From: Chthoniobacteraceae bacterium
Lineage (GTDB): Bacteria > Verrucomicrobiota > Verrucomicrobiia > Chthoniobacterales > Chthoniobacteraceae
DNA length: 64,000 bases
Assembly (NCBI GenBank): GCA_037190965.1
Contig: JBBCKI010000063.1
Coordinates: 18,206-82,205, forward strand
Reading direction: 5' to 3'
Shown piece after piece: positions 24,001-33,000 of this stretch. Made by a program: the position numbers. How positions within the stretch are numbered: the stretch's first letter is position 1; the number at the start of each line of letters is the position of its first letter.

Positions 24001-27000
24001 TTTTGCCGCAGCTCCCCGGCGGATAATGGCTTTTCGGGGATAAAACATGGATTTTTGGGGTAAAACGACGCAATTAAGGCCCGGCGAATCGAGATTCACC
24101 GGGCTGAGGAGCGACGTTTTGAGCCAAAGAGACGCTTTTAGCCCGATCTCCAATGCTGGAGCGAGCGGAACTGCGCAAGAGCCTGGAGCAGAAACGGTTG
24201 AGGAGAAGCGCGGTCGTATCCTTTGATACGACGCGTTTCGACGAAGTCGTTTATGCCCAGGAAATTGCGCAAGGCCGCCGTGATCAACTTCGGAGTTCGG
24301 GTTTAGCACAGGGGTGGCAGGGCGATGGAATTCACGGGAAGTACCAATCCGACCGCGAGCATCGAAATTTCAACACAGCTATCGCTACAGACATGGCGTT
24401 CGGCCTCAAGTTTTCGCGGAATAAGCTCCCCTTTCGGCGATTTTCAATCATACAAAATAAGAAACCCTTATCAAGATCACCCTCAGTCCTCTAATGTCCT
24501 GATTCCAGAAGCGCAGTTCTCCTCATTTCGGGCGGAAAAGGTCACGGGGGGTATTCACCCCTCTTACGTTGAGACCAAAGCGCCTCCGATAATACGAAAT
24601 CGCTCCCTCCTGAAGAAGAATCTGACGATGTGCCGCGCCAGTGCCTCCGGCTTCAGAAATCAAAGAGGATGGGTTACGGCTTGCAGATTTTGAGGAATCC
24701 GAGCAAAGATGAATCAAACTTTTATAAAACCTTAAAAGCGAGCGCCTCCAAACCGCTCGGAGACAAATATTTAATCCAAATTTGATCCAATGAGGGACTT
24801 ATCCAGTATGCGTTCGGAGCCGACCTCGCAGTTAAAATTGCTGCTGGTTGAGGACGACGCCTCCGTGCTCGCGGCGCTACGGATGTTTTTGAAGTCCGAC
24901 TATGAAATTCATTCGGCGTCCACGGTGAGCGCCGGGATAAATCTCTTCAAAACCCTGCAGCCTGCGCTCGTACTGCTGGACTTGCGCCTTCCGGATGGAG
25001 ATGGACTGAATGCCTTGCGCGAGATACGGCTAATTAGTGCAACGGCCCCCGTGATTATCCTAACCGGTTACGCCTCAATGGGATCCATTGAAGAGTCCCT
25101 GCGCCTCGGAGCTTCCGATTTTCTGCATAAACCGTTCAAGGGATTCGAGCTGAAGTCGCGAATCGATCAATTGACCGGCCGAAATGCACCGCCCCCTCCC
25201 CCTAAAACTCCGGAAGAAAACGAAGAGCAGAAAAAAAAAGAACTGACTGAACTGGAATATCGGGCAAATGCCTCCGCGATGTTTCTGCACGATGCCGCCG
25301 GGCCGGTAACGACCGCGATGACGGCTGCCCAATTTCTAAACGAAGCGATCACCGCATCCCCTGATCACTTCGACCAAAGCTTGCATAAAATGAGCAAGCT
25401 CTTGTGCGATGCGATGAACCTTATCTCGGGGCTGTTTGAACAGAGCCGTTCCATCGAGCAATTATGCGACATGGTGGCCACGGAAGTCCCCGTCTTGAAG
25501 ATTCTCGGCCCGACCATCGACCTGCTGCGCCCGAAAATCAGGAGTCGCGACATTACGATGAATGTTGAGGGAAAGCTTGAACATACTAGGTTGAGAGTTA
25601 ATCATCTTGCATTGATTCGAGTCCTTTCCAATCTCCTGCACAACGCCATCGATGCCGTGGAAGACAATACTGGCAGGGTCAACCTGACCATGAATCTAGA
25701 AAAAAAATGGGTTGAGTTTACCATTCAGGACAATGGTTCCGGCATCCCCCCTCAATACATGGAAAAAATTTTCGAAGCCCATTTTACAACCAAACCGGAA
25801 GGAACCGGCATGGGCCTCTATATCTGCAAACACCTGATAGACAGCATGGAAGGCATGCTTACTGTACGAAATGAACCCGGCCACGGGTGCTGCTTCTCGG
25901 TTAAAATCCCTCGCTAATTATGACTGCCCCGAACTCTGAAACCGATAATGACAGCATTATCGTTTGCGAAAACAGCCAAGGCGTTACCGTTCGTGCCATC
26001 CTACTCAGGATGACTCGCTATACGGTGAGCTTCGAAGTCTACAATCCTTACAGCATCCTTCAGCTTTCCGAAGTTCTGGGAAGCTTTCGGATCATCATCG
26101 GCGGAAAAATCCTTTACTCAGGGCGAGGGATTGTCTGCAACATGGTCAATACGGGCATCGTGCTCGTTTGCGAAGCCTCGCTCGATGAGGAAAGCTGGCT
26201 TGAGCTTGATCTCCTCGCCCCGTGGGCGCAGGTGGAGCGGCTCGCAAGTGACTTTGAACGCATCGTCTCCGAATGGGGAAAGATGGAGCAGGTGTCACCC
26301 GAGCTCAAGGTGATCGTCTCCGACATGCAGACACTTCTTTCCGACATGCGGCGTTGGCTCGAACAGGTCGAGCTTGCCATTCGTTCGGGCTCTCCCCCCG
26401 AAAGAAGGAAGCTGGAGCTGACGATCATCGAACGGCTCAACACCTTGATTCTTCCGGTCACTCAAAAGCTTTTCGAGCGGTTCGAGGAGATTGCCGGAGG
26501 CACCAAGGACGAAGTTGTGGCGGTGCATCGCGCCTACGCGCGTCGCCAGCTTCACCCTCTCGTGCTTTGCTCCCCCTTCCTGCACCGGACTTTTCAGAAG
26601 CCGCTTGGCTACGCCGGCGACTACGAGATGGTCAACATGATCTTGCGGGATCCCGTCGAAGGCGCCTCTCTCTTCGCCAAGATGCTCAACAGTCACTTTG
26701 TTGGCGTCGCGCCTGCGGAAGCACATCGCAATCGGGTCACCTACCTGACTGAAATGCTCAGCAGGGAGACGCGCCGCCGGGCCAAGCTTGGTTTGAACAC
26801 CAGGTTCTTCAATCTCGGCTGCGGACCCGCCAAGGAAGTGCAGAACTTCCTTAACGATGATGACTTGTGTGATCGCGCCGAGCTGGCATTGCTCGACTTC
26901 AACGACGAAACGCTCGCACAAACAGGAACGCTTCTGACCGACATCAAGATGAAGCTTCGCCGGTCAACACGGCTGCACATGATCAAGCGCTCCGTGCACC

Positions 27001-30000: not shown

Positions 30001-33000
30001 GAGTTAACCTACCATCATGATGAACAACCTGTACGACTACAAAAAGTTTGGACTCCTCTACGTGGATGATGAGGCCCAAACCGCATCGAACTTTAAGGCC
30101 TACTTTTCCGACACCTTTGACGTGGAAGTTGCCACAAGCGGAGAAGAGGCATGGGAGATTTTCTCCGCCAATAAAAACCGCTTCGCCATCGTCATGAGCG
30201 ATCAGCGGATGCCCGGCAGCAGCGGTGTCGAACTCCTGGAAAAAGTGCGTGCCGCCAGCCCCCGTGTCCTGCGTATTCTCGCCACGGCATACTCGGACAT
30301 CGAGGCCGCCATCGCCGCCGTCAACAACGGCGCCATCTATCGCTATGTCAACAAGCCGTGGGACCCGCCCACGCTGGAAATGGAACTCAAGCGCGGCATG
30401 GAGTTCTTCCTGGTTCAGCGCGAACGGGATTCCCTGATGAAGGAAAAACTGTCGGCGCTTCAGCGCATGATGGTGACCGATCGCCTCTTGAGCCTTGGAG
30501 TTTTTGCCGCGGGGCTCAACCATCATTTGCGGAACTCCCTCACCGCAGTGAAAACATTCCTCGATCTCGCTCCCTTCCAGTTGCAGAGCGAGAACATCGA
30601 CATCAACAACCTTCGTAACCCCAACTACTGGCGGGATTTTTACTCCACCGTCCAGGGGCAGATCTGCAAGGTGGTCGGATTGCTTCAGGATATCAACGAA
30701 ATCCCCCAACCCGCCGGAACGCCTTTGGCGGATTCCGTCTCGTTGAACACGCTCGTTCAGAGTGCTTACGACACCCATCGTGGAGCCTTTGACGACAAGA
30801 AGATCGACGTCCGGCTTGAACTCGACCAGATTCCCGAAATCAAGGGCAATCGGCCTCTTTTGGAAAAGGCGCTCAAGCTCCTGTTGGCGGACGAGTCTTC
30901 AAATGTCCCCGCCGCGGGGAAAGTAACGATCAAAACAGCGGCCGACGTCGATAGTGCCGGACGGCAAGGAATCAAAATCGAGCTTCTCGACAATGGCCCG
31001 GGCCTTTCAGCCGCAAAGCTCGACTGCATCTTCGATCCGTTTTTCGTGCGGCAGGACAATCCCAGCGAGTACGGACTCAATCTCCTGACCTGCTTCTTTG
31101 TCGTTCACCACCATAGCGGAAGCATGCTTGTTGATCGCAGTGATGAAGGTGGGGCTCATTTCAAGATATTCTTGCCGCTGCAAGCCAGGGATAGCGACCT
31201 CCGCCAGGAAGAAACCTATTTGGAGCGCGTCTTCGAAATGGAAAAGACCTGGGAAAAGATGTTGATCAACTAATAGGCGAGGCCCATCACCTCTCTTGGA
31301 AGAAGTAACATTTCGTGCGTGGCCCGGTTTTCCAATGGAAACCGGGCCATTTGAATTTGATTAGCGCAATCCCCTCCTCCACCGGCCATGGCTACCTGCA
31401 TGAGCAAGGCCTCCAATCATCAACGCCTCAACTGAGTAGACGATAAGCCGACTCAGAGAACGCAAGAATATCGCTCCAACCCAATTCGAACGCAGGCTCC
31501 ATTTCCTTAATGAAACGCCGAGTCGAATCGGCAATTTTCTCTTCAGCAGTTGCCAAACGTCGGCCAACGCTGCTCTCGTGACACGCCCACAATACGGCGA
31601 CCTCCCTCCGGGTTAACCCATGACCATGGACAAGTTGAAGGATGACGAGATCCTCCGGATCGCATTCCCGGAAAGCATTGCGAAGGGCTTGTCCGACGAT
31701 TTCGACGGCTACCGGATCGACCAGCCCGTCCGACGCTCCTTCGCTTAAGCTCTCGCTTTCCTGCAACGCCCGCAATTCCTCAATAACTTCGTGGCGAACC
31801 TTCTCGTGCCGCTTTCTTGAAATCCAACGATTAATGGCGATGGCCGCCAGCCATGGCTGAAGGATTGATCTCCCGTCAAATCGGTGAAAAAGAGGAACAC
31901 GGCCGGTATCGCCTGCGAGACAGTCTGCCCAGATCGCCGCAAGAATTTCGTCCGCTTCGCTTTCAGACGCACCGCGCCTCGTCAGGACCGCTCGCAGGTA
32001 AGGACCGTTAATCCTCTGGAGCTCCAAAATGGACTCTGTGTCACCCTCCAGACAACGCTGCACGAGGTTGATGTCACGAATTTCGTCTAACTGTTCACCC
32101 ATCCGGTCTCGATCTTAGGAATTCAAGGTGGGCATACAACGCAAAAGAGGGTGCGAAGCGAGGCAAAAGCTTTTGCAAGCCTGAGCCGGTATGGCGTAGC
32201 CTACAAAAAGTGATGACGAATTTTGGCAGCCTATTTCGCCTTCTTGAAACCCTCGACAAGGAGGTTTCGGGCCGACAAGCCGTCACGCCGCCGATGGAAA
32301 TTCAAGGATTGCTCCGCGATTTGATGCAAGGAAACCTTTCTGCGAAACAGCGGAAGGTCATTTGTGAAAAGCTCCTGGAGGAACCGGGGTGGATCGCATG
32401 GTTCGCGGAGGAGATTAAGGCCAATCGCACCCGATGACGATTGGGAATCGACGAGCGGACGCCGCGTAAGCATACAGGCCTTGCGGTTGAGTGACGGAAG
32501 AATAGCAAGGGTTGCCGCACTATTGCTGACACCCTCGGATTCCACGGAAAACAACGAAGAACCGCGTAAAATTGCGCAAGGCCGCTACGAGTGCGTCGGA
32601 GTTCGGGTTTGATTCCGCTTTAAGAAGTGGAGGCGAGGGGAGTTGAACCCCTGTCCTATAAACCATCTAGACCCGCTTCTACATGCATATTTGGCCTACT
32701 ATTTAGGATGACGGTTGCGGACCAACGCGCTGCCGGCATCCGAGCGTCCACGAAATTATTTCGCCTTCAGATGCGGTCGCCCCACCTTCCGGCTAGCCTA
32801 CTGTCATCGCTCCCGGCTGTAGTAGGCGTCCGGCCGGGAACGTCACGGTCAATTAAGCCGCGAGAGCGAGGTCGTTAGACTCTGCATTTATTTGTTTTGA
32901 TCCGGTTATTAACGAGGCCAACGAATCATCCTCGGCATGCGGCGTGAATTTCAGATTTGTAGTCGAAACCAGTACGCCCCCTTAACGGAGTCAATTTTAC

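Follow-up and report, generated by a model that had tools for sequence, protein, structure and literature searches.

A PhcB-type synthase and a long two-kinase PhcS receptor in a Verrucomicrobiota operon suggest fatty-acid-ester signalling far beyond Ralstonia

Whether a signal of the Ralstonia Phc type is also made and read in Verrucomicrobiota is the question raised by an operon in a 64,000-nucleotide stretch of DNA from a soil Chthoniobacteraceae bacterium (hereafter the window). Fatty-acid methyl-ester quorum sensing has so far been described from Ralstonia and Cupriavidus, and passages of PMC8578825 term the phc cluster genus-specific. A survey limited to Proteobacteria assigns the cluster to Betaproteobacteria, and excerpts of its supplement show one or more gammaproteobacterial phcB orthologues lying outside a cluster (PMC10653808). 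Our literature search, whose coverage excluded subscription journals and bioRxiv supplements, found no Phc-type system outside Proteobacteria. Fatty-acid-methyl-ester signals have reportedly been studied in methanotrophs, in work that the search did not turn up.

Four tightly packed open reading frames on the same strand formed one operon (24790-31273, + strand, window coordinates; Table 1), in the order receiver-kinase, phcB, long phcS and phcQ-like, with a 4-base ATGA overlap between the phcB and sensor-kinase genes. The start at 24808 previously given for the first gene is the second ATG; 24790 was preferred, where the start resembles that of the closest relative. Pfam detected no DNA-binding domain in any product of the operon. 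The downstream hairpin was the strongest among 14 sites, of which 11.1 would be expected by chance, so its reading as a terminator draws on its length and place. The promoter scan remained below chance, no clear conserved DNA motif was found upstream among 8 aligned leaders, and no Rfam element beyond the tmRNA was found. The host genome is 97% complete; its housekeeping proteins matched their counterparts in a Limisphaerales bin at 75-82% identity and the nearest PhcB relatives were labelled Spartobacteria, which fits Verrucomicrobiota.

Table 1 Features of the phc-like operon in the window.
Feature	Position	Strand	Basis
Receiver-controlled histidine kinase (REC-DHp-CA), 375 aa; accessory, not a PhcR orthologue	24790..25917	+	Pfam Response_reg and HATPase_c
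PhcB orthologue, 475 aa: PilZ-like beta-barrel, helical bundle, class I SAM methyltransferase; predicted signal synthase	25920..27347	+	Alignment, model
PhcB N-terminal beta-barrel, residues 12-88; PilZ-like, without c-di-GMP motifs, holds the R22 equivalent	25953..26183	+	Model, Pfam of relatives
Long-form PhcS, 887 aa: six-helix membrane sensor, kinase 1 (H239), receiver (D560), kinase 2 (H675)	27344..30007	+	Pfam, alignment to PhcS
PhcS-type six-transmembrane sensor domain, adenylyl-cyclase-anchor fold	27404..27970	+	Model and alignment
Receiver protein (D62) resembling PhcQ, 418 aa, its degenerate tail kinase-like; probably a pseudokinase output	30017..31273	+	Alignment to PhcQ, relatives
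Probable terminator hairpin, 14 pairs	31319..31350	+	3' of the last gene, before a convergent sigma-70-like gene

A direct alignment to Ralstonia PhcB, which the initial annotation had named as lacking, was obtained: the methyltransferase was 37% identical over 463 aa to PhcB of R. chuxiongensis (E 3e-107), with R22 kept as R25. This reference is not an RSSC strain and was tied to the published residue positions, R22, L161, R154 and H230 all being found there in its locus (L154). Arginine occupied the R22 equivalent in 106 of 127 aligned proteins, and the R22C substitution in Ralstonia PhcB reduces signal output according to passages of PMC6989110. The gene was single-copy in the host genome and the sole match of the PhcB query there. 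The earlier match to Paraburkholderia was reproduced (39.2% over 98%) and corresponds to a plasmid gene of P. graminis with genes for a kinase and two regulators behind it. That the family is implied by existing database names had been conceded: JGI's 'extracellular factor (EF) 3-hydroxypalmitic acid methyl ester biosynthesis protein' stood on many of the 120 matches listed. This automatic KEGG/JGI name on close relatives is a transferred label without a test and is silent on receptor form, output and range.

The PhcB model (pLDDT 91.8) displayed a methyltransferase fold with 3ocj as the best match (Z 20.6, rmsd 2.9, 251 aligned); the closest matches were mostly small-molecule methyltransferases, and all those listed in whole-model searches fell on the methyltransferase domain. 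The N-terminal barrel, six-stranded in the model, gave an Atlas lead of 0.86 to a PilZ cluster, and Pfam PilZ matched 5 of 42 aligned PhcB N-terminal domains, the window's domain not being among them. Despite the barrel, the PilZ c-di-GMP receptor motifs (RxxxR and D/NxSxxG) were absent from the window's protein; none of 80 Verrucomicrobiota-type relatives, with N-termini cut to the extent of the profile match, and none of 79 Burkholderiales proteins had them, against 57 of 68 cyclase-branch proteins. The PilZ-like barrel provides a structural context for the Ralstonia R22C substitution, which is located outside the known catalytic domain. No solved structure related by sequence to the synthase, the sensor or the N-terminal barrel was found.

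The sensor domain aligned with Ralstonia PhcS (35% over 195 aa, E 4e-34), and a conserved sensor motif was common to both. A held-out sensor profile scored distant sensors at 65-120 bits and any other ORF of the host genome at 10.5 or less; the domain was single-copy there. The PhcS kinase scored 400 against kinase 2 and 174 against kinase 1, and PhcS kinases nested among kinase-2 domains; judged by sequence, kinase 2 is the counterpart of the PhcS kinase. The receptor was also considered as a PhcS-PhcR fusion, which was ruled out because the second kinase groups with PhcS and not with PhcR. The name MASE8 given to the sensor in the initial annotation had to be dropped, as no Pfam family matched the window's domain at E<=1 (PF20968 unmatched). 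MASE8 reached E<=0.1 in only 7 of 92 aligned sensor relatives (best 1.4e-6), and Atlas returned the MASE8, MASE2, MASE6 and MASE11 clusters all alike at 0.94-0.96.

Fold searches with the sensor model (pLDDT 96.4) returned 6r3q (Z 16.2, rmsd 2.9, 181 aligned), ImcA (8wcn, 16.0) and AC5 (8sl3, 14.8), the next row being at 9.8. According to the model, the domain shares the fold of adenylyl-cyclase membrane anchors, with the caution that helical bundles give high Z by chance. Six short helices without extracellular loops are common to the AC9, AC5 and Rv1625c anchors, P. aeruginosa ImcA, CqsS/LqsS and the window's modelled sensor, but the latter is only 10-15% identical to them. The ligands of CqsS and LqsS are alpha-hydroxyketones, which PLP enzymes make. 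Sequence kinship of the sensor with these two was unsupported, since a profile search of four Burkholderiales genomes (lqs carriage not established) brought up no second match of LqsS type. Passages of PMC4821796 report a chimera in which CqsS drives a cyclase.

The cytoplasmic part recalls Leptospira LvrA-LvrB(-LvrC), with which the window shares a kinase-receiver-kinase protein followed by a receiver-kinase and the lack of DNA-binding domains. In NCBIfam the receptor matched LvrA best (E 3.6e-89, residues 205-883), but LvrA was ruled out as its orthologue because the score was 300 bits against a cut-off of 1200 and the cytoplasmic layout alone is in common. LvrA senses via a cytoplasmic PAS domain without membrane helices (PMC5863495), whereas the window has a membrane sensor; the Lvr system has no synthase. 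A search for an LvrC-type receiver-fused anti-sigma protein revealed none that was prominent, with two standalone matches of 144-157 aa.

On the output side, the 418-aa protein was the best genome match of PhcQ (36% over 206 aa, E 3e-36), with R154 kept as R156, and all of the 61 loci whose flank was long enough held a PhcQ-like gene. Among PhcQ-like relatives, the kinase-like tail kept its His in 35 of 59 and had altered N and G2 boxes; from such comparisons it is probably a dead kinase. The tail of PhcQ was not alignable with it (probability 0.3%), which left a decayed-kinase origin of PhcQ's own tail unsupported. The 375-aa receiver-kinase had its phospho-Asp, His and G boxes all present in translation, and its close orthologues were confined to seven of 80 loci (L001-L007) plus G430. 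On the PhcR profile it scored 68 bits and the two other candidate regions 86 and 103, compared with 304-732 for Burkholderiales PhcR; the best genome match of the PhcR query was the PhcQ-like protein (26%). PhcA, queried with a 347-aa protein picked by place, length and family and not by database name, gave zero tblastn matches in the genome at 1e-3. HMMER returned at best 27% over part of the protein (E 2.6e-7), a match outscored by unrelated LysR paralogues in Ralstonia. With neither orthologue, the known Phc output is missing here.

The designation as a Ralstonia-type Phc operon thus stands for the direct homology of the synthase, the sensor domain, the transmitting kinase and the PhcQ receiver region. 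The two systems share a full-length PhcB, a PhcS-type sensor directly behind it, a kinase with an H230-type H box, a PhcQ-type receiver with its following helix, the residues R22, H230 and R154, and the absence of a DNA-binding domain from the operon. The window departs from Ralstonia in a receptor twice as long through an extra kinase and receiver, a different receiver-kinase upstream, and a PhcQ-like protein ending in a recognisable pseudokinase. The phcBSRQ order, valid for Burkholderiales loci, does not describe the window, since a PhcR orthologue is absent from the operon and a PhcA orthologue from the genome.

By profile searches, 67 of 301 class genomes carried both the synthase and the sensor, 2 the synthase only, 2 the sensor only and 230 neither. 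The operon had been called widespread in Verrucomicrobiota; the synthase indeed occurred in 69 of the 301 (host included), but patchily, with full-length copies in none of 5 genomes of the same genus and in 1 of 36 of the same family, and a single-sequence search retrieved it from 15 of 401 phylum genomes, host included. The count of at least 587 related loci was recovered among 600 pattern matches listed, and 5192 synthase matches at 1e-10 were obtained among 8000 scored candidates. Although patchier inside Verrucomicrobiota, the range beyond Burkholderiaceae was wider than claimed, record titles covering Planctomycetota, Gammaproteobacteria, Myxococcota, Bdellovibrionota, Acidobacteriota and Leptospira.

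The genetic context analysis confirmed that the sensor gene lies directly downstream of the synthase (80 loci examined, 74 of them with a flank of 600 bases or more, the arrangement holding in 72). Two further samples gave 78/79 and 71/77. In all three counts the profiles were built from the same loci that they count, the loci are not independent, and some contigs are shared by two samples. Within the cyclase branch (Bdellovibrio-type genomes), adjacency held in 71 of 74 loci, and natural sensor-cyclase fusions stood behind phcB in 62 of 74. The pair remained constant while its output varied between kinase, cyclase and PP2C phosphatase, the pattern expected for a ligand-maker and its receptor. 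Speaking against it, related methyltransferases had no detected sensor nearby (L175, L214, L216, L234, L329 and L379), and cNMP-domain fusions occurred within the same family. A FadL-type channel was found beside 33 of 63 related loci, fatty-acid synthesis genes near 5 and a GDSL esterase near 6; these recurring lipid-handling neighbours favour a lipid signal, and the lack of a FadL family match in the host genome counts against one. We consider it possible, at somewhat less than even odds, that PhcB and the six-helix receptor are an old modular lipid-ester pair crossing phyla, in which the two-kinase receptor is the older form, Ralstonia a shortened offshoot, and the same domain controls other outputs elsewhere: a class III cyclase in Bdellovibrio bacteriovorus and Acidobacteriota, a phosphatase in Leptospira idonii.

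Taken with the observed gene layout, domain homology, conserved key residues, co-occurrence and fold, the operon probably serves a self-made methylated lipid signal of the Phc type that is read by the neighbouring receptor and passed through a longer, PhcA-independent relay. By orthology, PhcB would methylate a long-chain (probably 3-hydroxy) fatty acid with SAM to a neutral ester that leaves the cell; 37% identity leaves the substrate unfixed, and a lipid ester is the predicted product. The six-helix domain would bind the ester within the membrane and switch kinase 1. Lipophilic ligands are known or proposed for six-helix anchors of matching fold in passages of PMC4821796 and PMC12414865, which supports the reading of a lipid signal. 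As in LvrA/LvrB, of the same cytoplasmic layout, kinase 1 may pass phosphate to the internal receiver and thereby switch kinase 2, which would phosphorylate the PhcQ-like protein and perhaps, in this lineage, also the receiver-kinase encoded upstream. The pseudokinase could then act by binding another protein (not PhcA), as PhcQ binds PhcA.

The same synthase-receptor logic could also handle another acyl skeleton or a methylated membrane lipid, reporting lipid state at short range or intracellularly and not cell density. Accessory enzymes that differ between lineages (short-chain dehydrogenases, a ketoacyl synthase, FabA-like enzymes, a desaturase), the lack of a FadL family match in the host genome, and N-terminal PilZ and cNMP domains suggestive of second-messenger control all fit this reading, which we nevertheless regard as unlikely: identity spans the whole methyltransferase, including 19 invariant columns in common with the Burkholderiales enzymes, the sensor motif is common to PhcS, and the presence of FadL next to half of the related loci suggests outer-membrane traffic. 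The constant adjacency would equally fit an enzyme and its protein substrate, that is, CheR-like methylation of the neighbouring receptor or the PhcQ-like protein without a diffusible signal. Weak CheR matches (Pfam E 4e-6, in a Leptospira protein; 5ftw, E 0.046) and the resemblance of a PilZ-controlled methyltransferase to MapZ-CheR1 lean the same way. Such methylation is nonetheless very improbable given the mostly small-molecule methyltransferases among the top folds, a receptor in which Pfam finds no methyl-accepting chemotaxis domain, and a Ralstonia orthologue that makes a diffusible ester, as described in passages of PMC6989110 and PMC8578825.

The least probable reading, for which we see only a slight chance, is that the operon was acquired recently as a cassette and lies silent, or lacks a target, in the host. 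It would account for the operon not being found in 5 same-genus genomes, for the stretch 21015-32620 beside the tmRNA 3' end that had no long DNA match in 4 congeners, and for the absence of PhcA. Against it, none of the four frames is broken and their catalytic residues are conserved, the identical four-gene layout recurs in seven related loci spanning several orders, and GC is only mildly low (55.0 vs 59.1%; 7% of windows are lower). An att-like repeat that would mark an island at the tmRNA was searched for and none was found.

To the family itself, already implied by database names, this analysis adds the sensor's fold likeness, the PilZ-like barrel and the pairing with cyclases. What adenylyl-cyclase membrane domains sense is an open question in passages of PMC12414865. 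Both the fold match of the sensor and the naturally fused receptor-cyclases are relevant to it, with Bdellovibrio as a genetically tractable case, and if the adjacent PhcB makes the ligand, a natural ligand would be named for a six-helix cyclase anchor. The pair occurs in about a fifth of the sampled class genomes, including cultured carriers (Pelagicoccus, Luteolibacter pohnpeiensis), so that a direct test could show whether abundant bacteria of soil and fresh water produce, perceive or disturb such signals. The conserved pair suggests that a little-studied type of fatty-acid-ester signal is used far beyond Ralstonia, and, if true, Verrucomicrobia and predatory bacteria would have a quorum signal that has so far been unsought.

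The four genes of the operon were separated by 2, -4 and 9 bases, and their coordinates in the initial annotation were already counted along the window. In gene order, Pfam assigned a receiver-kinase, a weak methyltransferase, a kinase-receiver-kinase and a receiver-kinase, and it detected no DNA-binding domain in the four proteins. A hydrophobic region without a Pfam name preceded the kinase-receiver-kinase part of the 887-aa receptor, and the MASE8 label given earlier to this sensor protein was not supported. The phc locus of Ralstonia chuxiongensis (L154), although not from an RSSC strain, was considered a sound stand-in for Ralstonia Phc because R22 in PhcB, L161 and H230 in PhcS and R154 in PhcQ were located at the positions published in the consulted parts of PMC6989110 and PMC11960443. 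Direct comparison confirmed the proposed homology of the synthase to Ralstonia PhcB (37% identity over 463 aa, E 3e-107), with R22 kept as R25 in the window methyltransferase. Residues 1-226 of the receptor matched PhcS (35% identity over 195 aa, E 4e-34), the motif EGASSPYYxGLNL being common to both, and the product of the last gene matched PhcQ (36% identity over 206 aa, E 3e-36), with R154 kept as R156. The best matches of Ralstonia PhcB, PhcS and PhcQ in the window genome were their respective operon counterparts.

The operon is real and is a true relative of Phc signalling. By gene content it is not a Phc member, because PhcR, PhcA and the gene order fail. The phcBSRQ order ascribed to it was not borne out, no PhcR orthologue was found in any part of the operon, and no PhcA orthologue was found in the window genome or in three other carriers tested, using as the query a 347-aa LysR protein 14 kb from L154 phcB that was taken as PhcA. 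In the plasmid locus of Paraburkholderia graminis (L081), the phcR position held only a 134-aa receiver protein; that plasmid copy is therefore shortened. The Phc system is described for the RSSC and Cupriavidus in the passages seen of PMC8578825, PMC7154725 and PMC13220807. A survey of 6,937 Proteobacteria genomes, other phyla lying outside it, restricted the cluster to Betaproteobacteria (PMC10653808, in part). Literature searches within the library coverage found no report of a Phc-type system outside Proteobacteria; JGI protein names already imply the family for relatives of the window synthase.

Among the closest loci, the sensor gene directly followed the synthase in 72 of 74; the corresponding counts were 78 of 79 for Burkholderiales loci and 71 of 77 for motif-scan loci (80 loci examined per sample, those with <600 bases of flank dropped; the 80 Burkholderiales loci were collected with the Paraburkholderia protein as query). 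Profile searches of 301 class genomes (>=90% complete) detected the synthase and the sensor in 69 genomes each. They occurred together in 67, with a synthase match only in two (one partial) and the sensor only in two; no statistic is claimed for this co-occurrence because kin are not independent. The description "widespread in Verrucomicrobiota" held only in part: the distribution was patchy, with 15/401 phylum genomes positive in a single-sequence search. A full-length copy was present in none of five congeners and in one of 36 family genomes. Counting against strict pairing, the sensor was not detected near homologues L175, L214, L216, L234, L329 and L379, and more distant PhcB-type methyltransferases were fused to cNMP-binding domains. 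For three such proteins from same-family genomes (L297, L298 and L299), the PhcS-type sensor was absent from the stretch fetched. The short methyltransferases of two second loci lacked the N-terminal barrel, and an Omnitrophota locus (L175) follows the same logic with a different receptor.

Coordinates of the operon, its neighbours and related loci
Feature	Location	Strand	Remarks
Four-gene operon	window 24790-31273	one strand	ORFs of 375, 475, 887 and 418 aa
14-pair hairpin	window 31319-31350		after last operon gene
Sigma-70-like gene	window 31428-32102	-	best NCBIfam TIGR03001, below cut-off; convergent with operon
Small ORF	window 32210-32437	+	divergent from sigma-70-like gene
tmRNA gene	window 32625-32981	-	
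tRNA-Lys(CTT)	window 10920-10995		
PhcB-related methyltransferases with N-terminal cyclic-nucleotide-binding domain	L297:709-2283, L298:1495-2937, L299:1306-2754		same-family genomes
Second loci	G369:C21:7781-9268, G354:C17:55437-56944		short (~323 aa) PhcB-like methyltransferase with second ~500-aa sensor adjoining
Omnitrophota locus	L175:2981-7751	-	FadL-type channel, short PhcB-like methyltransferase, 7TM sensor kinase of another family
Leptospira idonii sensor-PP2C (SpoIIE) phosphatase fusion	L174:3519-6726		directly upstream of PilZ-PhcB gene

The synthase model (pLDDT 91.8) consisted of a six-strand barrel (residues 12-88), a helical bundle and a class I methyltransferase fold. Pfam PilZ matched 5 of 42 aligned N-terminal domains. 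Motifs for c-di-GMP were carried by 57 of the 68 proteins sampled from the cyclase branch (PhcB-like genes paired with sensor-cyclases) and by no close or Burkholderiales relative. The barrel is therefore a PilZ-like domain whose nucleotide binding has probably been lost in the window protein. The position of PhcB R22 falls within this barrel. For the sensor model (pLDDT 96.4), the best match was 6r3q, the membrane domain of a G-protein-bound adenylyl cyclase (Z 16.2, rmsd 2.9, 181 aligned), followed by ImcA (8wcn, Z 16.0) and AC5 (8sl3, Z 14.8), the next row scoring 9.8, on a scale where chance scores run high for helical bundles. Foldseek placed ImcA first (E 0.002). The top matches were of one coherent kind and spanned the entire domain. 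The six-helix quorum receptor CqsS is able to drive such a cyclase (PMC4821796, in part), and PMC12414865 states that a ligand site has yet to be mapped on the membrane domain of any cyclase.

The PhcS kinase scored 400 against kinase 2 and 174 against kinase 1 in a profile comparison. A tree of 48 kinase domains was rooted on kinase 1. In this tree, the kinases of all 13 short receptors nested within the kinase-2 domains, Burkholderiales were sister to a long receptor from Gammaproteobacteria (98/89), and three short receptors from Verrucomicrobiota were placed among long ones. Long receptors were also found in Planctomycetota, Gammaproteobacteria and Myxococcota loci. On the simplest reading, the long receptor would be older and the kinase 1-receiver module would have been lost more than once. 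Close orthologues of the upstream receiver-kinase occurred in only 7 of 80 loci, and a different receiver-kinase lay downstream in some other loci. The PhcQ-like protein kept its phospho-Asp, with a degenerate kinase tail: His was present in 35 of 59 relatives, and the N and G2 boxes were altered. By contrast, H, N and G2 of kinase 1 were all conserved in 69/69. No alignment was obtained between the tail of the window protein and that of PhcQ.

The same pair was also found with other outputs. The motif scan recovered at least 120 loci, assigned by record title with some bin labels doubtful, from Comamonadaceae, Oxalobacteraceae, Gammaproteobacteria, Planctomycetota, Myxococcota, Bdellovibrionota, Acidobacteriota and Leptospira idonii. 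The L. idonii sensor and those of L195 and L201, which are PhcS-type sensors fused to class III cyclases, scored 65-81 bits with a profile trained on L001-L161 only, versus <=10.5 bits for any other ORF of the window genome; no reversed control appeared among the matches listed. A scan with cyclase- and phosphatase-type proteins gave 80 loci, the sensor lying directly behind in 71 of 74 with flank. Sensor-cyclases accounted for 62 of these 74, complete Bdellovibrio bacteriovorus genomes included. PhcB-like genes with intact PilZ motifs directly preceded the sensor-cyclase in B. bacteriovorus and many Bdellovibrionota and Acidobacteriota (e.g. L347, L350, L351, L373). By motif, a desaturase-like gene lay near 16 of 80 cyclase-branch loci. 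Both metal Asp residues, Lys and Arg were invariant in 38 cyclases picked by motif. The transition-state Asn was kept in 22 and replaced by Pro in 15, B. bacteriovorus included, so activity may be reduced in these Pro forms.

The window genome was consistent with Verrucomicrobiota and originated from a soil metagenome, according to its listed sequencing runs. Comparison with four congeners gave no long DNA match for an 11.6-kb region on the 3' side of the tmRNA gene (21015-32620), which contains the operon and the sigma-70-like gene together with a GH20 hydrolase and an ATP-grasp gene, and no att-like repeat was found around it. The sigma-70-like gene was not a recurring neighbour of related operons. 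A short REP-like dispersed repeat, with a 17-base core and, 27 bases further along, a 15-base element, lay on both flanks (24262 and 32569) and recurred on contigs C16, C29 and C73. An intergenic element of ~170 bases (35147-35317) had many copies in the congeners' genomes.

By our reading, the synthase would methylate a long-chain, probably 3-hydroxy, fatty acid, and the resulting ester would bind the six-helix domain within the membrane. Phosphate would then pass from kinase 1 to the internal receiver, which would switch kinase 2 by analogy with LvrB, itself switched by receiver phosphorylation (PMC13269768 and PMC5863495, both in part). Kinase 2 would phosphorylate the PhcQ-like protein, which may act by associating with a target, in the way that PhcQ binds PhcA and stabilises it (PMC13320629). 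It is likely that the window receptor reads a self-made lipid signal, and the chances are about even that this signal is a 3-hydroxy fatty-acid methyl ester. A FadL-type channel was encoded in 33 of the 63 close loci whose upstream flank was long enough, versus 1 of 77 Burkholderiales loci; the window genome had none. In FCPU426-type loci (L070, L071, L072, L078 and L049), genes for a ketoacyl synthase, a FabA-like protein and a phosphopantetheinyl transferase adjoined phcB. That the product is instead a different methylated lipid, or a cue acting inside the cell, seems unlikely. A CheR-like protein methylase is highly improbable, and a silent cassette is slightly more improbable still.

The predicted system resembles Ralstonia Phc at the synthase-receptor level, and its predicted relay resembles LvrAB of Leptospira. 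More broadly, the synthase and sensor may, at slightly less than even chance, represent a cross-phylum lipid-ester pair that would also supply the ligand of six-helix cyclase anchors.
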